Positions 1 through 6,982 of a stretch of 6,982 nucleotides of DNA are shown piece after piece. The notes under the pieces were generated by a model. It saw only the letters and a program-made list of their open reading frames with translations. It ran no database searches and had not been told where the DNA came from. A program made the translations under genes and the position numbers. Each line of letters starts with the position of its first letter. The stretch's first letter is position 1. The stretch is from a virus. Its lineage: Duplodnaviria; Heunggongvirae; Uroviricota; Caudoviricetes. The stretch lies in the IMG/VR virus record IMGVR_UViG_2778261350_000001, positions 1 through 6,982 of that record; one strand, given 5' to 3'.

Positions 1-106
1 GAGCGCGATCGATATCAGAACTGTAACCATTGCCGTTATGGCAATGGAATGAGGCGTTATTACCCACAGTTTCACGCGAGCACATCATGTAAAAACGGTT
101 GATCAC
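1..106 (-). CDS. Partial hypothetical protein; 5' end only, continues beyond window start
   Basis: GTG at 106-104 overlaps the upstream stop (GTGA) and sits 6 nt after GGAGG (113-117 on plus); an in-frame ATG-ATG pair at 88-83 is an alternative start. Frame stays open to position 1 (..[29 protein letters not shown]..). Not in the ORF track because it is truncated. Confidence 0.25.
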
Positions 107-270
107 CGGTTGCCTCCTTTGCGCCACATCGCATTCAGATATTTGTTGTCGTTAACAGAACCGAAACTATTTCTCTTAAGCAATTCCTCTCTCGATGGCA
201 TTGGCTTTACGCGTTGGCGAATAATCATTTCTGCCGGAAGAATGCCAGGATTGTATGCAAGACCTCTCAT
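103..270 (-). CDS. Hypothetical small protein (55 aa), translationally coupled to upstream gene
   Basis: ATG at 270-268 overlaps the TGA of the 267-548 gene (ATGA); GGAG lies 7-8 nt upstream. Hand translation: [55 protein letters not shown]. Below the ORF-track size cutoff; the plus-strand ORF 110-298 looks like its antisense shadow. Confidence 0.3.
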
Positions 271-548
271 GATTTACTCTCCACGAACTGGTCAATAGCC
301 ATGCTAAGTGACACACCTAAAGTCTCGATATGCTGCTGAATATCCTGTAGCGTCTGCTCCTGAGATAACAGTATTTCACGGTTGCATAACTCTTTAACCA
401 GATGCTCAAACTTGCTGTAATAACCGATACGACTTAGTGTTTCTTCCCCTGCATTCTCGCCTTCTTTGATAATTCCTCTTTCGCTAAGAATCAGGTCGTG
501 TTTGGTTCCGGTAATAACGTATTTTCCGAGGTCGATGTTTAGCTTCAT
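267..548 (-). CDS. Hypothetical phage early protein (93 aa)
   Basis: ORF track; GGAG about 9 nt upstream of the ATG at 548; same orientation and tight spacing with neighbouring PL-operon genes. No family recognised. Confidence 0.5.
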
Positions 549-564
549 TGTTAATTACTCCATG

Positions 565-879
565 TTAATTTATTCGTATGCCTGCTCTTTCTTCATCGAG
601 TTTTTTTAGCTTGTATCGCATAGCTCTTACTGAATAAATTGAGCGGCAGGTTGCAATTGCTATTTCTTCTGCGGAGAACTTACCGAAAAGTGATACTTCG
701 GCTCTTGTCCATCGCCTTCCACGAAGTCGGCTAACAATGTCAGCGCCAATCCTTGTTGCTTTCGCCATTACTGCTTTTTCAGTCCTTTCCAGTTTTTCAG
801 CGATAACTTCAACTGGCATTGTTGCCGCTACTTCGCGCAAGAAATCGACTTCCCATTTCTCCCATGGAGTCTTTTTCAT
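565..879 (-). CDS. Hypothetical protein with two tandem ~40-aa helix-turn-helix-like repeats (putative DNA-binding)
   Basis: ORF track. Internal repeat seen in translation: PWEKWEVDFLREVAATMPVEVIAEKLERTEKAVMAKATRIG and RWTRAEVSLFGKFSAEEIAIATCRSIYSVRAMRYKL share a W-x3-E-V-x-(F/L)..E-x-IA..R-x4-V/A pattern, reminiscent of GcrA/SANT-like HTH units. Weak SD. Confidence 0.55.
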   Translation of the reverse strand: MKKTPWEKWEVDFLREVAATMPVEVIAEKLERTEKAVMAKATRIGADIVSRLRGRRWTRAEVSLFGKFSAEEIAIATCRSIYSVRAMRYKLKKLDEERAGIRIN

Positions 880-890
880 AGGCGATACCG

Positions 891-1373
891 TTATTTGATA
901 AGAAGTGAAGGTTTCCCAACTTTGAGTTGAGCGCCGGGGATATTTATTCCTGCTTTTAGTTGGTGTTTGATTGCCAGTTTGTCGGCTTTTATTGTTGTTT
1001 CAAACTCAACGTATTCTGGAGGAAGGGCGCTTGAGTCGATTATTTCTACAATTTCTGACGGTTTGCGGATTGTTACCTGGTGAATACCTGCTCGAATATT
1101 TTTCTTGCCAACCATTTCAAGCGATGACGCTATATATGATTTGATGCTGTCAATCTTATTTTGAATTACTGCGGCTCGCTCATTCAGTGACTTTGCCTCT
1201 TCCTTGAGGCGTTCGGCATAACCAGATTCATTTTTAATGACGGAAAGAAGTTGTTCTATTTTATCGGTAAATTCTCCTTCCATGCCTTCTATTGTGTCAG
1301 CAATCATCTCTGGTTCTAAATCTGAATCCATCAGCTTTGCGTATTCATTGGCTATTTCATACAGTTTGCTCAC
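891..1373 (-). CDS. Gam-like / siphovirus Gp157-family protein (host-nuclease inhibitor-like)
   Basis: ORF track 891-1379 (frame opens with TTG). I place the start at GTG 1373-1371, 6 nt downstream of GGAGG. N-terminal coiled-coil-like region followed by a beta-rich C-terminal part; size and architecture resemble Mu Gam / Sipho_Gp157 proteins that sit next to RecT/Erf recombinases. Overlaps the recT 3' end. Confidence 0.55.
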   Translation of the reverse strand: MSKLYEIANEYAKLMDSDLEPEMIADTIEGMEGEFTDKIEQLLSVIKNESGYAERLKEEAKSLNERAAVIQNKIDSIKSYIASSLEMVGKKNIRAGIHQVTIRKPSEIVEIIDSSALPPEYVEFETTIKADKLAIKHQLKAGINIPGAQLKVGKPSLLIK

Positions 1374-2268
1374 TGGCAACCTCCAGTTTCGCTTTGCATT
1401 CTATGTAAATGGCTTGTACGTTCTGCTGCAATTTCATTCCAGATGTCAGGCGATATGCTTCTGCAAAATATCGCTTCAAATCATCCATGTTTTCTGCCTG
1501 AGCCATTTCATCGCAAAGAAGTTGTGCTTTATCCATTATTTCCTGCTGGCGTTTCCGTTCATCTTCGCGGATATCTTCCTCTGATTTGTGCGGCATAACT
1601 GGTTCAGTCCACACACCTTCTTCTTCGTTTAGTACGTGAATAGCACTATCAAGACGTGATGCCTTAGGCCAATACTTGCTTGCACGCTTTACGACCGTCT
1701 TTCGCGCCATCTCATTCCAGTGATTTACCCATGGTCCTTTATCGCTGAATGCTGCCTTGCTTGTTTTCCTTACAGCCTCAATTTCAGCCAGACTCATCTC
1801 TTCCGTTAGATAATCACCTGCTGGCGTCTTAACTGTGCAGTAAACGCCAACGATATCACCACGATCACCGAAGGCGTTGTATTTATGGGTTGGTGCTTTA
1901 TCAAGCCCGTTTGACTCATAGGTATCGTTAGCATGAACAAGTTTTGCCTGACCCCATGAGATAACACCAGACTCCATTGCAATATGGAGCAATCCCATAT
2001 AACTGATATCAAGGCAAACCATGCCGTCGCGCGGAACTAGATAAGCAAGTTTGCTGGCCGGGTTTAAGGTGATGCCTATCGCCGCAACATTGATGATGGC
2101 GTTCTGTGCGCTGGTTGGATTTGCCAGTGCTGTTTTAGCCAGGTAATCGTTTTTCTGGAAATACTGAATTGCAAACTGGCTTTCCTTAGCCCATGTCACC
2201 GTCTGTTCAGTCAATGCTCCGCAGAATAACTGCTCTTGCTGTTTAACGAATTCAACGATATTGCTCAT
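1357..2268 (-). CDS. recT: RecT-family single-strand annealing recombinase
   Basis: ORF track, 303 aa. Contains the GPWVNHWNEMARKTVVKRASKYWP segment matching the conserved RecT core (Rac RecT: GPWVTHWEEMAKKTAIRR..KYLP, from memory). Not Red-beta-like. ATG at 2268 overlaps the stop of the upstream gene (ATGA); GGAG 7 nt upstream. Confidence 0.85.
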   Translation of the reverse strand: MSNIVEFVKQQEQLFCGALTEQTVTWAKESQFAIQYFQKNDYLAKTALANPTSAQNAIINVAAIGITLNPASKLAYLVPRDGMVCLDISYMGLLHIAMESGVISWGQAKLVHANDTYESNGLDKAPTHKYNAFGDRGDIVGVYCTVKTPAGDYLTEEMSLAEIEAVRKTSKAAFSDKGPWVNHWNEMARKTVVKRASKYWPKASRLDSAIHVLNEEEGVWTEPVMPHKSEEDIREDERKRQQEIMDKAQLLCDEMAQAENMDDLKRYFAEAYRLTSGMKLQQNVQAIYIECKAKLEVASEQTV

Positions 2269-2576
2269 GCAGCTTCTCCATAAATATGTCTGCGTTTGAA
2301 TATTGCGAAGGCATATTCAGCCTTAACTCTTTCGGTTATTGCATCCCAGAACCATTCAGCGGCTTTTTCCTGATAGTTACAGTCATCATCTTCCAGCCAG
2401 TCGATAGCGTCCTTAGTGTGTTCATCTGGTTTATATGAGCGAAGCATTTCGCTTATTGGGTCGCAACGTTTGCAGAGGCGATCAACTTCACTGTTGATTC
2501 GCTCGTAATCTTCATCAGTAAAACTTGCGATTATTTGCGATATTTCACGCTTATCATTCAGAGTCAGAATCATCAT
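2265..2576 (-). CDS. Hypothetical acidic protein (about 102 aa)
   Basis: ORF track. Tandem ATG-ATG at 2576-2571 preceded by AGGAG (rc of 2582-2586); the second ATG has better spacing. Its stop overlaps the recT start. No family recognised. Confidence 0.55.
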   Translation of the reverse strand: MMILTLNDKREISQIIASFTDEDYERINSEVDRLCKRCDPISEMLRSYKPDEHTKDAIDWLEDDDCNYQEKAAEWFWDAITERVKAEYAFAIFKRRHIYGEAA

Positions 2577-2661
2577 CTTTCTCCTGTTCTTTGTGCTGAT
2601 TGAGCATTTTGTTCATCTGACGAATGAATTCTTCGTCTGACCATGTATCCGCAATGCTCAT
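2551..2661 (-). CDS. Hypothetical small ORF (36 aa, acidic C-terminus)
   Basis: ATG at 2661-2659 overlaps the TGA of the 2658-2822 ORF (ATGA). Hand translation: MSIADTWSDEEFIRQMNKMLNQHKEQEKDDDSDSE. Its 3' end overlaps the start of the 2265-2576 gene in another frame; weak SD. Could be a chance ORF. Confidence 0.2.
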
Positions 2662-2822
2662 TGCTTAACGACCTTAATCAGTTGAGTTACCTCAATGATG
2701 TCCTCGCATAAATCAGAGTACTGAAATGGGCCGCAGTTGTGAGAGTTAGTGCGTCTGGCGAAAGCCATTCTTCTAAGCTCTTTCAGGGCTTCTTCCAGTT
2801 CCTCGTAAGTTGGTTTTTTCAT
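2658..2822 (-). CDS. Hypothetical small protein (54 aa), coupled to cIII
   Basis: ATG at 2822-2820 overlaps the cIII TGA (ATGA). Hand translation: MKKPTYEELEEALKELRRMAFARRTNSHNCGPFQYSDLCEDIIEVTQLIKVVKQ. It occupies the slot where lambda has small genes after cIII. Below ORF-track cutoff. Confidence 0.35.
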   Translation of the reverse strand: MKKPTYEELEEALKELRRMAFARRTNSHNCGPFQYSDLCEDIIEVTQLIKVVKQ

Positions 2823-2989
2823 GGCTGTACCTTTTGATTCAGAAACTCAACAAGACGATCCAGCAAGCTCTTAACGCGAGGTTGTTTAAAGTCTGCTCCG
2901 GTTAAAATATTTTTTCGTGAATGCTGCACCGATAAAATTGGGTTGAAAGGGCGAACCGATGCCGCCCCTGCAATAGCGAACTGTTGCAT
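2819..2989 (-). CDS. cIII: cIII-like protein (FtsH inhibitor family), 56 aa
   Basis: Track ORF 2819-3094 contains the internal start MQQFAIAGAASVRPF... at 2989-2987 with AAGGAG 6 nt upstream. The N-terminus MQxFAIAG and the SLLDRL..FLNQ segment resemble lambda CIII (MQYAIAGW...SLLERI...ILNQ, from memory). The upstream leader also resembles the lambda cIII leader. The longer track N-terminus (MEIFFALQCEGFF..) is probably not translated. Confidence 0.6.
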   Translation of the reverse strand: MQQFAIAGAASVRPFNPILSVQHSRKNILTGADFKQPRVKSLLDRLVEFLNQKVQP

Positions 2990-3052
2990 AGGATGCTCCT
3001 TCTGTTTGATTGCATAACGAAAACGCCTCGAGTGAAGCGTTATTGGTATGCA

Positions 3053-3079
3053 TATAAAAAAGCCCTCACACTGGAGGGC
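3053..3079 (-). terminator. Rho-independent terminator candidate between the N-proximal insert and cIII
   Basis: Minus-strand transcript reads GCCCTC-CAGTGT-GAGGGC followed by TTTTTT (plus strand: A-run 3056-3061, stem arms 3062-3067 and 3074-3079). The U-tract is only on the minus strand, so it is orientation-specific for the leftward operon; presumably read through under N antitermination. Confidence 0.6.
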
Positions 3080-3172
3080 AAAGAAGATTTCCAATAATCA
3101 GAACAAGTCGGCTCCTGTTTAGTTACGAGCGACATTGCTCACATAGCAGACTCGTAAATCTGCTATAGGTGC

Positions 3173-3331
3173 TTATTCGCATCGCATGACAACATCAAAT
3201 TTTTCGAGATTACTTTGTCGCAACAATCCTTCTTCTACGCGATCAGCTTTTCTATAATTATCAAATTCGAAATGTTTAATTACTTCTTTCGTTTCTCGCT
3301 CTATAACTTCAACGATGTATTTCTTATTCAT
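3173..3331 (-). CDS. Hypothetical small protein (52 aa)
   Basis: ATG at 3331-3329 overlaps the TAA of the 3331-3600 gene (TAATG). Hand translation: MNKKYIVEVIERETKEVIKHFEFDNYRKADRVEEGLLRQSNLEKFDVVMRCE; stop at 3175-3173. Below ORF-track cutoff; the plus-strand ORF 3215-3442 is its antisense shadow. Confidence 0.35.
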   Translation of the reverse strand: MNKKYIVEVIERETKEVIKHFEFDNYRKADRVEEGLLRQSNLEKFDVVMRCE

Positions 3332-3600
3332 TATTCATCACCTATGGCTTTTTTGATAGCTTCGCGAGCCTTATTAACAGCTCCATACCATTCTGGATAT
3401 GTTGTCGTTGTTCTATTTTCGGCTTGCTTAAGTAATAACTGAAGTGCTTCAAGTAAATCCGGTGCAGCCATAGCTAATCTTCCATTTGCTAAGGCCTCTT
3501 CTGTTTCTTTACCGGATAGGGCCATTCCCGGGTGTGAAAATAAAATTAAGCCTGCAAAATTGGCTTCTCGCCAATTTTTCCTAGTACCTTTAAATTCCAT
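3331..3600 (-). CDS. Hypothetical protein (89 aa)
   Basis: ORF track; GAGG about 7 nt upstream of the ATG at 3600. No family recognised. Confidence 0.55.
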   Translation of the reverse strand: MEFKGTRKNWREANFAGLILFSHPGMALSGKETEEALANGRLAMAAPDLLEALQLLLKQAENRTTTTYPEWYGAVNKAREAIKKAIGDE

Positions 3601-3620
3601 GTTAGCCTCTGTTGTTTATG

Positions 3621-3648
3621 CCAAAAATAAAGGCCGACTATGCGGCCT
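3621..3648 (-). terminator. Terminator-like or attenuator hairpin at the 3' end of the 207-aa gene
   Basis: Minus-strand RNA: AGGCCG-CATAGT-CGGCCT followed by TTATTTTTGG (stem arms at plus 3631-3636 and 3643-3648; T-run is the rc of 3621-3630). Overlaps the TAG stop of the 3638-4261 gene. Confidence 0.35.
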
Positions 3649-4261
3649 CGGAAGGAAGTCCAATCATCTTATTCAAATCTTCTACCCGTAAAGCAGGAAG
3701 TGCTGCACTTGCTTTATCTGCTTCTTTTGGTAGCAACTCTTTGCTTTCAGGCCAAACTTCAATAAGTCGCTTAACTGTTGTGACTGAGTTCAAAGCAGCC
3801 CATACATTTGATTCGATATCCTTTTTCTTGGCTTCAAGTTTTTGTTGCAATGCGCAGATTTCATCAAACCTTTTTGTTATTTCGTGTTCTGCGCTAAACA
3901 TGCATTTATCTTTGGTCGGAGTAGGGAGCAATATATCTTCTCCGTTGCCGTCTTTCCCATATGAATGCCATCCAACCCTTCTGCCAGATACAGTCAGATA
4001 AATCGAAGTAGAACGAACATCGTATGAGTAAAATGGACATCCCAGTTTTTCAAGTTCTTCACTTATAGCTACTAACTTGGATGATAACTGATCCACTACC
4101 TCAGTTTTCTTTTTACCGCCAAACGCAATAACTCTGGCGTCAAGTGCAAGCTGGTTCATTAACTTTGTTACTTCTTCAAGTTCAGTGAAAACCCCAGACT
4201 TAATTAAAGCGTTACGAGCGATTTCCTCTTTCATTCTCGTAGTTAAACGGATTGATGACAT
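3638..4261 (-). CDS. Hypothetical protein (207 aa) immediately downstream of N; function unknown
   Basis: Track ORF 3638-4321 begins inside N. The likely start is ATG 4261-4259 (MSSIRLTTRMKEEIARN...), with GAGGA directly after the N stop codon and 6 nt before the ATG. Hydrophilic, no transmembrane-looking segments, no family recognised. Confidence 0.6.
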   Translation of the reverse strand: MSSIRLTTRMKEEIARNALIKSGVFTELEEVTKLMNQLALDARVIAFGGKKKTEVVDQLSSKLVAISEELEKLGCPFYSYDVRSTSIYLTVSGRRVGWHSYGKDGNGEDILLPTPTKDKCMFSAEHEITKRFDEICALQQKLEAKKKDIESNVWAALNSVTTVKRLIEVWPESKELLPKEADKASAALPALRVEDLNKMIGLPSEAA

Positions 4262-4272
4262 ATTAATTCCTC

Positions 4273-4599
4273 TCAAATAAGTGGTTTGCTGCCTAATTTC
4301 ATTTTCTGGCGACCAACACAAGTCACACCCATTTCACTGCGTGGCTTGCTGTACCATGTGCGCTGATTCTTGCGTTCAATACGTTGCAGGTTGCTTTCAA
4401 TCTGTTCGTGGTATTCAGCCAGCACTGTAAGGTCTATAGGATTCAGTGCGCTTTCTACTCGTGATTTCGGTTTGCGATTCAGCGAGAGAATAGGGCGGTT
4501 AACTGGCTTTGCGCTTACCCCAACCAACAGGGGATTTGCTGCTTTCCATTGAGCCTGTTTCTCTGCGCGACGTTCGCGGCGGCGTGTTTGTGCATCCAT
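4273..4599 (-). CDS. N: Antitermination protein N (lambda-like)
   Basis: ORF track, 108 aa. MDAQTRRRERRAEKQAQWKAANPLLVGVSAKPVNRPILSLNRKPKSRVESALNPIDLTVLAEYH... matches lambda N nearly residue for residue over about 85 aa, including the arginine-rich boxB-binding motif; the C-terminal ~25 aa diverge. GGAG upstream (..caggagaatccagATG). Confidence 0.95.
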   Translation of the reverse strand: MDAQTRRRERRAEKQAQWKAANPLLVGVSAKPVNRPILSLNRKPKSRVESALNPIDLTVLAEYHEQIESNLQRIERKNQRTWYSKPRSEMGVTCVGRQKMKLGSKPLI

Positions 4600-4797
4600 C
4601 TGGATTCTCCTGTCAGTTAGCTTTGGTGATTGGATGGCCGGCGCTGAACCCCGGCTTACTGGTTAGAGCGCCCGCACTACCAGTGACGCTGTCTTGAGGC
4701 GCAGATTGGTTACTGCTTGCCATGAGCGCTGTTTATACATTGGTCGAGCATCAGCCTGCTCATTCATCCAATCCCAAAGCCTTCTGCTTTGAATGCT

Positions 4798-4828
4798 GCC
4801 CTTCTTCAGGGCTTAATTTTTAAGAGCC
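4798..4828 (-). promoter_or_regulatory. nutL: nutL (boxB hairpin 4798-4812, boxA-like 4820-4828)
   Basis: On the minus strand: GGCTCTTAA-AAATTAA-GCCCTGAAGAAGGGC. boxB equals lambda nutL boxB (GCCCTGAAGAAGGGC); boxA differs from the lambda CGCTCTTAA by one base as far as I recall. Correctly placed between PL and N. Confidence 0.85.
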
Positions 4829-4860
4829 TCACCTTCATGGTGGTCAGTGCGTCCTGCTGA

Positions 4861-4896
4861 TGGCTTAAAATTACAAGAAAGATTGTATGTTGTAAA
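4861..4896 (-). promoter_or_regulatory. PL promoter (-35 TTTACA at 4891-4896, -10 TAATTT at 4868-4873, start near 4861)
   Basis: Minus-strand sequence downstream reads ATCAGCAGGACGCACTGACCACC, which matches the 5' end of the lambda pL transcript as I recall it. Hexamers have a 17-nt spacer; OL1 lies in the spacer and OL2 overlaps the -35. Confidence 0.7.
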
Positions 4897-4940
4897 CAAG
4901 AAATATTGTAAAAAGGGGCGTGAAAAACAAACTCCATTGT
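4873..4940. promoter_or_regulatory. OL operator cluster: three 14-bp 434-type repressor sites
   Basis: acaagaaagattgt (4873-4886), acaagaaatattgt (4896-4909), acaaactccattgt (4927-4940); all ACAA-N6-TTGT with dyad symmetry. Same consensus as the OR sites next to cI/cro. Confidence 0.8.
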
Positions 4941-4989
4941 TTTTAAATGAAAAATAGTTTGTTTTTGGTTATCGAGATTGAGGTGGGGA

Positions 4990-6342
<1,353 letters not shown>

Positions 6343-6350
6343 GACATTCC

Positions 6351-6382
6351 CGCTCTTACACATCCCAGCCCTGAAAAAGGGC
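6351..6382 (+). promoter_or_regulatory. nutR: nutR (boxA CGCTCTTAC 6351-6359, boxB GCCCTGAAAAAGGGC 6368-6382)
   Basis: Both elements match lambda nutR as I recall it, located just after the cro stop. A downstream 8-bp-stem palindrome at 6406-6427 lies in the region equivalent to lambda tR1. Confidence 0.85.
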
Positions 6383-6451
6383 ATCAAATTAAACCACACC
6401 TATGGTGTATGCATTTATTTGCATACATTCAATCAATTGTTATCTAAGGAA

Positions 6452-6484
6452 ATACTTACATATGCAACTTACAAGTACTCGCAA
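6452..6484 (-). promoter_or_regulatory. PRE-like CII-activated promoter candidate (antisense to the cro-cII junction)
   Basis: Minus strand reads TTGC(6484-6481)-gagtac-TTGT(6474-6471), then 13 nt, then AAGTAT (rc of 6452-6457). Same geometry as lambda PRE (TTGC-N6-TTGC, 13 nt, AAGTAT) inside the first cII codons, but the second repeat is TTGT. Assigned by positional analogy only. Confidence 0.4.
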
Positions 6485-6740
6485 GAAAGCGAATGCAATT
6501 ACAAGCAACATCCTAAATCGAATTGCTGTACGTGGTCAGCGAAAGGTAGCCGACGCGTTAGGGATTAATGAATCGCAAATTTCACGATGGAAAGACAGCT
6601 TCATCCCAAAAATGGGAATGCTTCTGGCTGTTCTTGAATGGGGTGTTGAAGACGAGGAGTTGGCGGAACTGGCTAAGAAAGTAGCCAGAATGCTGACAAA
6701 AGAAAAAGCCCCGAAGAACGGCGAATTCTTCGAGGCCTGA
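6462..6740 (+). CDS. cII: CII-family transcriptional activator (92 aa)
   Basis: Internal start of track ORF 6402-6740, with AAGGA upstream in a leader identical to the lambda cII leader. ..ESQISRWKDSFIPKMGMLLAVLEWGVEDEELAELAKKVARMLT aligns with lambda CII (..KSQISRWKRDWIPKFSMLLAVLEWGVVDDDMARLARQVAAILT). N- and C-termini diverge from lambda. Confidence 0.9.
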   Translation: MQLTSTRKKANAITSNILNRIAVRGQRKVADALGINESQISRWKDSFIPKMGMLLAVLEWGVEDEELAELAKKVARMLTKEKAPKNGEFFEA

Positions 6741-6774
6741 TGTAGAAAGACTGGATCAATCCACAGGAGTAATT

Positions 6775-6982
<208 letters not shown>

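Follow-up and report, generated by a model that had tools for sequence, protein, structure and literature searches.

The locus described here raises the question of what takes the place of the exonuclease in a phage recombination module that encodes a RecT-type annealing protein and no nuclease. The window, that is, the whole analysed stretch of 6,982 nucleotides (positions 1 to 6,982 of IMG/VR record IMGVR_UViG_2778261350_000001), derives from a virus of the Caudoviricetes. An earlier note, made from the letters alone, had proposed a RecT-family annealing protein overlapped by a Gam/Gp157-like protein of ~160 aa and followed by a small protein with two tandem HTH-like repeats. The open reading frames lie where the note had placed them, and an ORF and profile survey of the window sets them in an operon context with cI, cro, cII and N. 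With moderate confidence, the stretch can be read as the homologous-recombination (Rec) module of the early-left (pL/N-dependent) operon of a lambdoid temperate phage of E. coli, in which, as part of the same best explanation, Gp157 would protect DNA ends. The functions given below for the individual module proteins are predictions throughout. The features are collected in Table 1.

Table 1. Features of the Rec module and its left-hand neighbours (positions in the window).
Feature	Position	Strand	Description
p103	2265..2576	-	acidic, 103 aa, pI 4.65; first gene of the conserved block; phrog_3486
recT	1357-2268	-	303 aa, ATG start; PF03837, phrog_148
recT annealing core	1639..2268	-	residues 1 to ~210; single-strand annealing domain
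recT C-terminal tail, 'G-type'	1357..1638	-	residues ~211-303 + stop; EPVMPH...GMKLQQNVQAIY
gp157 (Sipho_Gp157 family)	891-1373	-	160 aa, GTG start; PF05565, phrog_253
p104	565-879	-	basic, 104 aa, pI 10.0; phrog_11492 + phrog_323; trailing 'Abc1-slot' gene
DUF5405 protein, Sf6 gp24-like	267..548	-	PF17399 E 3.6e-5; phrog_154
DUF2737 protein	103..270	-	PF10930 E 1.5e-30; begins the Ea-type accessory region running towards xis/int

The module consists of four minus-strand genes, namely p103, recT, gp157 and p104, which are tightly packed and for the most part overlap. The p103 stop and the recT start share 4 nt (ATGA), and gp157 overlaps the recT stop codon by 17 nt. The mechanically called gp157 frame opens with a TTG at 1379; a GGAGG Shine-Dalgarno motif precedes the GTG at 1373 by 6 nt, and this latter start agrees with the annotation of phage HK140. 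All four genes are under purifying selection (dN/dS 0.04-0.08 over 38-94 alleles; 0.07 for p103, 0.08 for gp157 and 0.04 for p104). Of 80 mosaic phages that carry this Gp157, 75-80 retain the complete block, p103 being found in 75 and p104 in 79 of them. The DUF5405 gene is variable, being present at only 36 of the 80 module-carrying loci, and is hence a neighbour rather than a constant member of the block; the DUF2737 gene occurs at 73. At the DNA level the module is ~97% identical to those of HK140, mEpX1, Kapi1 and Gally, and it was found in at least 265 complete E. coli genomes (coverage >= 80%). An Rfam scan of the whole window gave no matches.

The annealing protein poses little difficulty. 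Residues 31-217 match PF03837 (E 3.7e-32, 111.9 bits against a cutoff of 24) and the protein also matches phrog_148 (E 5.9e-92), so that, as judged from these profiles, the product is a RecT-family single-strand annealing protein, as the earlier note had it. The cognate 5'-3' dsDNA exonuclease that accompanies the annealing protein in RecET and lambda Red is absent from its side. Profile searches found no Exo-, RecE- or YqaJ-type gene between recT and the left end of the window, where only the DUF5405 and DUF2737 genes lie. An exonuclease immediately outside the window would have turned the locus into a standard RecET-like module; none is annotated anywhere in the complete genome of HK140, which carries the same module, and no nuclease domain was found in the ORFs of the Ea regions that lie left of the module in HK140 and the E. 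coli EP91A prophage.

Such exonuclease-free RecT-Gp157 modules are a common and already catalogued type. Zheng, Casjens, Davidson, Amundsen and Smith (2025, Genome Res, PMC12315714) describe the HK140-type Rec module as one that pairs a RecT-type annealing protein with a 'MuGam' anti-RecBCD protein and has no nuclease or SSB, and the corresponding module of Gally has been labelled 'recT-gam-abc1' (PMC9928086). The present module shares gene order, operon position and the lack of both nuclease and SSB with these, differs from them in nothing material and is thus another copy. It falls into the lambdoid class with an anti-RecBCD protein and an annealing protein but no nuclease and no SSB, i.e. 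the P22 class of PMC12315714. Like the module described here, P22 erf-abc1-abc2 combines an annealing protein, a host-nuclease-directed accessory protein and a tandem-HTH protein of ~100 aa in the same order and without a phage exonuclease. Its annealing protein, however, is Erf instead of RecT, and the part of the anti-RecBCD protein falls to Abc2, a RecC-binding protein that redirects RecBCD and has no homolog in this window. Since the module type is both common and catalogued, the observation of the earlier note is correct but ordinary.

The absence of the nuclease could conceivably reflect decay of a RecET/Red-type module. RecT would in that case act unaided at replication forks, and the downstream genes gp157 and p104 would be unrelated accessory genes (morons). 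Exo is indeed present in sister modules whose RecT core is homologous, lambdoid early-left regions are highly mosaic, and a Gally mutant deleted for recT-gam-abc1 could still produce virions and lysogenise (PMC9928086). Yet a decayed remnant would hardly be expected to keep overlapping start and stop codons, low dN/dS values and four genes together in mosaic phages whose flanking DUF5405 gene varies. The order RecT>Gp157 moreover recurs down to 40% Gp157 identity, carriers include viable, isolated phages, and 84 of 246 lambdoid modules are free of a nuclease (PMC12315714), which argues that nuclease-free modules are a stable design. Decay is therefore very unlikely.

A closer look at the slots of related modules shows what stands in the place of the missing enzyme. 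Lambda Red (gam-bet-exo), phi80 (gamL-recT-exo) and Rac RecET occupy the same operon position and follow the same three-slot logic, whereas here Gp157 fills the exonuclease slot and p103, which is unrelated to Gam or GamL, fills the gam slot. The earlier note had pointed to kil-gam-bet-exo of lambda in this position; the gam slot itself belongs to p103, a gene outside the note's finding, and Gp157 holds the 'exo' position. At 74 loci anchored on GamL, the slot after recT is occupied by Exo in 63 cases, by Gp157 in 3-5 and by both in none. In these sister modules, recT is followed by a nuclease of the lambda-Exo type or by Gp157, but never by the two together.

This alternation is mirrored in RecT itself. 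Its core is homologous to that of the RecTs of Exo-containing, phi80-type sister modules (49-62% identity), whereas its C-terminal tail belongs to another, unrelated type: identity to Exo-linked RecTs drops at about residue 210 from 40-57% to 13-20%. Tails are 45-88% identical among Gp157-linked and 48-81% identical among Exo-linked RecTs, compared with 11-20% between the two types. At matched core divergence (~62%), distant Gp157-linked RecTs retain the motif EPV[MA]P and a tail identity of 26%, as against 17% for Exo-linked ones. The last ~90 residues of RecT hence come in two unrelated types that track the downstream partner, Exo or Gp157, which suggests that the tail may be a partner-specific domain. 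The lineages behind this correlation are not independent of one another, and it could stem from physical linkage alone, because the DNA encoding the tail adjoins the downstream gene.

The gam slot is likewise occupied by different proteins. Relatives of p103 with 39-49% identity are encoded directly upstream of RecT in phages of Cronobacter, Erwinia and Serratia, those of Cronobacter and Erwinia having the order p103-like>RecT>Exo, and Klebsiella relatives of the module carry GamL in the slot that p103 holds here. A search of p103 against Pfam, including PF06064, gave no match. The possibility that p103 is a divergent GamL (PF28165) or lambda Gam (PF06064) was rejected, the hhalign comparisons being at noise level (score 11.6 for GamL, with a shuffle mean of 11.0; 0.7% for lambda GamS), so that the genomic slot alone is shared. 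By analogy of position, p103 may be a second, unrelated host-nuclease antagonist.

What, then, is the protein in the exonuclease slot? Gp157 matches PF05565 (Sipho_Gp157) over profile positions 1-162 of 162 (E 2.4e-37, 128.9 bits against a cutoff of 28.6), so the guess of a Gp157 protein was right and assignment to an unrelated family does not arise. The family is very large, comprising 11,827 cluster representatives at E <= 1e-3 in an exhaustive profile search (clusters at 50% identity); a scan of viral contigs with a narrower Gp157 pattern returned close relatives only. The AlphaFold2 model (pLDDT 82) consists of a 68-residue helix and a small C-terminal beta/alpha domain. Mu Gam (PF07352), a Ku-like dsDNA-end-binding nuclease inhibitor with a solved relative (2P2U), is of similar size and build, its 174 aa (160 aa in Gp157) likewise forming a long helix at the N-terminus and then a small C-terminal domain. 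It belongs to a transposable phage as opposed to a lambdoid RecT module, and end binding by Gp157 is a prediction.

Whether Gp157 deserves the term 'Gam-like' depends on the Gam that is meant and on the sensitivity of the method. In hhalign comparisons of deep profiles, Gp157 and Mu Gam align over 116 co-linear columns with 86.8-88.6% probability (P ~3e-6) and a score of 40-42, while shuffled, reversed and block-shuffled controls reach a maximum of 19-22. The signal sits in the C-terminal domain, which gives 81% on its own. These deep alignments with controls supersede shallow ones that yielded only 2.5%. An independent HHpred analysis of another Sipho_Gp157 protein reported 99.4% to 2P2U (PMC10530707), and in phages of Firmicutes, genes for Gp157 and for Mu Gam-like proteins share one position adjoining erf/sak4 (PMC8093625). 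Other searches, on the other hand, do not make the connection: Gp157 has no match to PF07352 at E <= 0.1 in a Pfam search, the two proteins belong to different PHROGs (phrog_253 and phrog_491) without PHROG or HMMER cross-match, fold searches with Gp157 did not retrieve Gam, and HMMER profiles of Gp157, both shallow and diverse, hit only coiled-coil noise among PDB sequences and did not reach 2P2U. Gp157 is also without a Pfam match to lambda Gam (PF06064), and hhalign gives 0.1% for GamL. Hence, Gp157 is probably a very distant Mu Gam/Ku-type relative through a shared C-terminal domain behind a long helix. On these comparisons it is Gam-like in the Mu Gam sense only, at profile-profile sensitivity only, and unrelated to lambda Gam. 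A role in interference with RecBCD or defence, as the note had suggested, is plausible given this remote homology and the published classification; for p104, which the note had named as a candidate too, the one pointer to such a role is its position, analogous to that of P22 Abc1. A literature search found no experiment on any Gp157-family protein.

From these elements a mechanism can be sketched. Gp157 may form a coiled-coil dimer that binds linear dsDNA ends in the manner of Mu Gam and Ku and shields them from RecBCD and other host exonucleases. It could then dock on the G-type C-terminal tail of RecT and thereby bring RecT to the ends, comparable to the recruitment of Beta by lambda Exo. 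Single-stranded DNA for annealing by RecT would be provided by host nucleases and helicases or by replication instead of a phage nuclease, and p103 could contribute as the possible second nuclease antagonist. In its most elaborate form, Gp157 would be the cognate non-nucleolytic partner of RecT, a Ku/Mu-Gam-like end-binding dimer that replaces the exonuclease in a Red/RecET-type machine, is recognised by a swappable RecT domain, caps ends against RecBCD and hands them to RecT with resection left to the host, and p103 would represent a new, Gam-unrelated family of host-nuclease inhibitors. This combined proposal is a tentative possibility.

Several observations could also be accommodated if Gp157 were a dedicated recombination mediator and not a nuclease antagonist, which loads or stabilises the upstream RecT or RecE-like protein on DNA or recruits a host nuclease or helicase, its likeness to Mu Gam reflecting merely a shared DNA-binding scaffold. 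In 6 of 6 distant lineages sampled, gp157 either overlaps the stop of the core recombination gene that precedes it or adjoins that stop directly, and across lineages with 35-100% Gp157 identity it is always tightly coupled directly downstream of RecT or, in other lineages, of a RecE-like protein (phrog_7838/2489). Gp157 is therefore not simply a substitute for Exo. Some modules furthermore encode Gp157 together with GamL, a direct RecBCD inhibitor, which would make a purely anti-RecBCD role of Gp157 partly redundant. The location in the Exo slot as opposed to the Gam slot and the covariation of the RecT tail type fit a mediator as well. Nevertheless, the sole homology signal of Gp157, in hhalign here and in HHpred elsewhere (PMC10530707), leads to an end-binding nuclease inhibitor, and its position in Firmicutes phages is that of true Mu Gam genes (PMC8093625), which makes a pure mediator rather unlikely.

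Names given in databases ('MAG TPA: resistance protein', for example) and the Pfam family description would instead cast Gp157 as a phage-resistance or superinfection-exclusion protein, and p104, an HTH protein in its AlphaFold2 model, as the transcriptional regulator of its gene. The resistance phenotype originally observed in S. thermophilus has, however, reportedly been put down to a cloned non-coding origin fragment and not to the protein. In the present locus, gp157 belongs to an N-dependent early lytic operon distal to cI and not to a moron position expressed from the prophage, Gp157 is consistently embedded in recombination modules, and no module protein matched any of the PADLOC defence models. 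An exclusion function is thus most improbable, and end protection is retained as the preferred reading.

The finding itself alters little, as RecT modules that have a 'MuGam'-type gene and lack an exonuclease are widespread among E. coli prophages and have been catalogued. In the published HK140 and Gally descriptions, p103 and the trailing HTH gene are left out as members, and the labels 'MuGam' and 'Abc1' are adopted untried. What is added is the probable remote homology of Gp157 to Mu Gam, p103 as the fourth gene of the block in the gam/GamL slot, the alternation of Exo and Gp157 together with the RecT tail type, and the HTH protein as a putative Abc1/Mu gp9-like positional analogue. The useful residue consists of testable hypotheses on a family that numbers over 11,000 clusters at 50% identity, namely that Gp157 is an end-protection factor and a RecT-specific partner via a modular C-terminal tail, and that p103 adds a new kind of protein to those filling the Gam slot. 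If true, these would explain how nuclease-free phage recombinases cope with RecBCD, and RecT and Gp157 might offer compact parts for linear-DNA recombineering in recBCD+ hosts.

The last gene of the block, p104, bears out the tandem HTH-like repeats noticed earlier, although not by pairwise alignment, in which the internal repeat scored 21 against a shuffle mean of 21.5 and was not above chance. In the AlphaFold2 model (pLDDT 84.5), a linker connects two three-helix bundles that resemble Myb/SANT-like HTH repeats, and longer relatives in the family alignment carry a third copy of the W-x3-E...EIA...RS unit. p104 matches Mu gp9 (BLASTP E 5e-5, hhalign 72%), a phrog_323 tandem-HTH protein whose gene adjoins gam in Mu. 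For P22 Abc1, BLASTP found nothing and hhalign reaches 32% with one HTH unit of 40 residues, the single weakly similar unit that the two have in common; both also match phrog_323, over partly different regions of the profile. BLASTP gave no support for direct homology of p104, the DUF5405 protein or Gp157 to P22 Abc1/Abc2, and the positional and PHROG-level analogy to Abc1 was retained. As a predicted tandem-HTH protein of ~100 aa at the distal end of the Rec module, p104 sits where an Abc1-type protein would and is, by this analogy, an Abc1/Mu gp9-like positional counterpart. It may act as a sequence-nonspecific or regulatory DNA-binding accessory. The idea of a specific pair of 'Gam-like' and tandem-HTH genes, taken from gp9-gam of Mu, is weakened because an HTH gene also trails 25 of the 63 Exo-type modules. 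In L331, an Abc1-type protein follows Gp157 in place of the p104 type.

The earlier note had described a recombination module consisting of recT, a Gam/Gp157-like gene and a gene for a small helix-turn-helix (HTH) protein. All three ORFs turned out to be real and correctly placed, and Pfam and PHROG profile searches bear out the proposed RecT and Gp157 family memberships (see the table). The best start of gp157 is the GTG at 1373, located 6 nt past a GGAGG, so that the gene overlaps the end of recT by 17 nt, and the stop codon of p103 overlaps the recT start (ATGA). Among 80 viral contigs encoding this Gp157, RecT is found in 80, p104 in 79, p103 in 75 and the DUF5405 protein in 36. The conserved block comprises four genes (p103, recT, gp157 and p104), all of which are under purifying selection (dN/dS 0.04-0.08).

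Genes of the window, followed by comparison loci
Feature	Position	Strand	Remarks
p104	565-879	-	104 aa
gp157	891-1373	-	160 aa; PF05565, E 2.4e-37, full-length; phrog_253
recT	1357-2268	-	303 aa; PF03837, E 3.7e-32; phrog_148, E 6e-92
p103	2265-2576	-	acidic, pI 4.65; PHROG of unknown function
54-aa ORF	2658-2822	-	sole match phrog_32687 (unknown function)
56-aa ORF	2819-2989	-	starts MQQFAIAG..SLLDRL
Nmad5 (nucleotide modification associated domain 5)	3638-4321	-	PF18757, E 2e-70, full-length
lambda-type N antiterminator	4273-4599	-	PF11438
134-aa ORF	4990-5394	-	N-terminal segment resembling a signal peptide
cI	5391-6023	-	HTH_3 and Peptidase_S24 domains
cro	6127-6342	+	
cII	6402-6740	+	PF05269
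Phage Mu (L076)	1483-2326		gp9 immediately upstream of gam
Salmonella phage SEN22 (L245)	4501-6513		p103 > ExoVIII (PD-(D/E)XK/DUF3799) > 189-aa ORF > p104 homolog
L413	1776-4504		RecE-like and Gp157
L414	3261-4501		RecE-like and Gp157
L415	184-1367		RecE-like and Gp157

The claimed lack of an exonuclease was likewise upheld. Pfam and PHROG searches revealed no nuclease downstream of the module within the window, where only a DUF5405 and a DUF2737 gene follow, and the annotation of the complete HK140 genome contains no Exo, RecE or YqaJ, where the HNH and RusA genes of the nin and late regions are the only nuclease-type entries. Ea-type genes fill the interval from the module to xis/int in HK140, Gally and the EP91A prophage, and no nuclease domain was found in the larger unannotated ones. 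The recT-gp157-p104 segment shares ~97% identity with its counterparts in the isolated phages HK140, mEpX1, Kapi1, Gally, Louie and 611R6; of 5,426 complete genomes of E. coli, 265 contain it (coverage of at least 80%). Misson et al. named the Gally genes 'recT-gam-abc1' and still obtained virions and lysogenisation after their replacement by a kanamycin cassette (PMC9928086). In their analysis of 325 lambdoid genomes, Zheng et al. (2025) cite HK140 as an example of annealing-protein type 4 (RecT type) without phage nuclease or SSB and assign its anti-RecBCD function to 'MuGam'; a nuclease is missing from 84 of the 246 modules of their lambdoid panel, and the class 'anti-RecBCD plus annealing protein only', with P22 as prototype, has 46 members (PMC12315714). 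The observation is confirmed and its interpretation largely right, but the module belongs to a known, common type, neither rare nor new, and is therefore of low interest.

In distant relatives and anchored scans, the slot preceding RecT is occupied by p103 or GamL, and the slot following it by Gp157 or a lambda-Exo-type nuclease. The trailing slot holds a tandem-HTH protein of the p104 type, of other types or of the P22 Abc1 type (locus L331). For example, Cronobacter phage ENT47670 and Erwinia phage Midgardsormr38 display the order p103-like > RecT > Exo, and Klebsiella prophages the order GamL > RecT > Gp157 > HTH. Among 74 GamL-anchored loci, 63 contain Exo, 25 of these with a trailing HTH protein, and three contain Gp157 (five counting truncated loci), while none contains both. 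In this slot structure, Gp157 takes the place of lambda exo and p103 that of lambda gam. A relationship of p103 to GamL or lambda Gam was nevertheless rejected, as no similarity is detectable (hhalign score 11.6 against GamL, equal to the shuffle mean; lambda GamS entered as an approximate sequence). In SEN22, a 96%-identical p103 and a p104 homolog flank ExoVIII and the 189-aa ORF in place of RecT-Gp157; the two small genes hence act as conserved bookends, between which the recombination core can be exchanged.

The label 'Gam-like' for the 160-aa protein holds in the sense of a probable remote kinship with Mu Gam, not of membership in PF07352 or PF06064. Mu Gam belongs to PF07352 and phrog_491, and neither Pfam nor PHROG yields a cross-match of Gp157 to it or to lambda Gam (PF06064). 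Several sequence and structure searches gave no connection: the solved Gam relative 2P2U, which a Mu Gam profile finds at 5e-8, lies beyond the reach of HMMER profiles built from the Gp157 family, and comparing shallow profiles with each other gave no significant result (2.5%). According to its AlphaFold2 model (pLDDT 82), Gp157 consists of a short helix, a second one of 68 residues and, at the C-terminus, a small beta/alpha domain. Deep profiles of 143 diverse Gp157 representatives, chosen among the 11,827 clusters that an exhaustive search had found at E <= 1e-3, and of 34 Mu Gam sequences aligned in hhalign at a probability of 86.8% (P = 4e-6), with 116 columns in co-linear order that pair Gp157 26-154 with Mu Gam 35-160, and at 88.6% once the 2P2U fragment was added. 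The score of 40-42 compares with at most 22 for reversed, column-shuffled and block-shuffled controls and with background scores for unrelated families. The signal resides in the C-terminal domain (81% alone, versus 2% for the N-terminal helical halves). A different Sipho_Gp157 protein matches 2P2U in HHpred with 99.4% (PMC10530707), and the position beside erf or sak4 in phages of Firmicutes is taken by Gp157 genes as well as by Mu Gam-like ones (PMC8093625). Taken together, these lines make it probable that Gp157 belongs to the Mu Gam superfamily as a distant member, outside the Pfam Mu Gam family. Experimental work on a Gp157 protein was not found in the literature searched. Foldseek searches with the Gp157 model gave weak partial matches to segments of larger PD-(D/E)XK/RecB-like exonucleases from phages (e.g. 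Tsukamurella phage TIN4, 398 aa, E 7e-3, TM 0.45), which may be long-helix noise or else hint at a shared accessory domain.

The C-terminal domain of lambda Beta binds lambda Exo, and the RecE/RecT and Exo/Beta pairs are partner-specific. In an alignment of 41 distinct RecT-slot proteins, the window RecT shares 40-83% core identity with Exo-linked RecTs of the same family, but only 13-20% from about residue 210 onwards. The tails of Gp157-linked RecTs (G-type; EPVMPH...GMKLQQNVQAIY), present in 10/10 distinct representatives, are 45-88% identical to each other and those of Exo-linked RecTs (E-type) 48-81%, compared with 11-20% between the types. In two remoter RecT>Gp157 lineages (Gp157 40-49% identical), the RecT core is 60-63% identical, as against 62% for Exo-linked cores, and the EPV[MA]P motif is kept, with a tail identity of 26% versus 17% for Exo-linked RecTs. 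Since tail type tracks the neighbouring gene, the analogy with Beta and Exo suggests a partner-specific domain in the tail, with Gp157 as the partner of RecT. Physical linkage alone could also produce this correlation, considering that the tail is encoded by the DNA adjoining the downstream gene. Moreover, the lineages compared are not independent of each other.

Lineages also exist in which a distant gp157 overlaps the stop codon not of recT but of a gene for a RecE-like protein of 742 aa (L413) or for proteins of 232-246 aa homologous to its C-terminus (phrog_7838/2489, 'exonuclease'), often followed by SSB (e.g. L414); RecT is absent near Gp157 in L413, L414 and L415. These RecE-like proteins lack a Pfam nuclease domain and resemble the 'RecE-2' proteins of Zheng et al., which apparently have no nuclease fold (PMC12315714). 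Gp157 is thus a general accessory coupled to a core recombination gene rather than strictly an Exo replacement. Some modules of Klebsiella and metagenomic prophages (L237-L239, L243-L244) encode both Gp157 and GamL, a direct RecBCD inhibitor, and the role of Gp157 may hence exceed simple RecBCD inhibition. A doubling of GamL and 'MuGam' was reported for one phage only, HK639 (2025 survey, PMC12315714); that of GamL and Gp157 may be commoner than reported.

The two tandem HTH repeats ascribed to p104 are no better than chance in a raw self-alignment, yet they are borne out by longer relatives with a third copy of the W-x3-E...EIA...RS unit and by an AlphaFold2 model (pLDDT 84.5) with two three-helix bundles and a linker. 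Although phrog_323 is common to p104, P22 Abc1 and the 99-aa tandem-HTH protein Mu gp9, p104 is nearer to the latter (BLASTP E 5e-5, hhalign 72%), and its structural neighbours form a broad set of uncharacterised phage tandem-HTH proteins of ~100 aa. Between p104 and Abc1, BLASTP detects no similarity and hhalign aligns a single HTH unit (32%), so that 'Abc1-like' describes an analogy of position and architecture rather than orthology. Abc1 itself is a 'poorly characterized', non-essential HTH protein that helps P22 recombination, and a screen linked it to P4-linked triggering of cell death and broad counter-defence phenotypes.

Beyond the family assignments, we infer every functional step, and give slightly better than even chances to the following combination. 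RecT would perform annealing, while Gp157, as a Mu Gam-like dimer probably docked to the G-type tail of RecT, would cap linear DNA ends against host exonucleases. Resection would be supplied by the host, and p103 (Gam slot) and p104 (Abc1 slot) would serve as accessories.

The 6,982-bp window comes from a lambdoid temperate phage and corresponds to its immunity and early-left region, with a leftward series of small genes after N. As a whole it has no counterpart in any collection compared; coverage peaks at 79% for an E. coli genome and at 51% for a phage, each time split into several pieces, as is usual for the mosaic genomes of lambdoid phages. Chi sites (GCTGGTGG) are absent from both strands of the window; the four in the whole HK140 genome lie in its structural region, always on the top strand. 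The 56-aa ORF resembles lambda cIII by eye; Pfam Lambda_CIII gives no match at E <= 0.01. The Nmad5 gene, with a probable ATG near 4261, directly follows N in the early-left operon, and its product has no PADLOC match. The 134-aa ORF belongs to no Pfam or PADLOC family; its ATG shares an ATGA with the cI stop codon, which places it in the rexAB position and makes co-expression with the repressor in lysogens probable.
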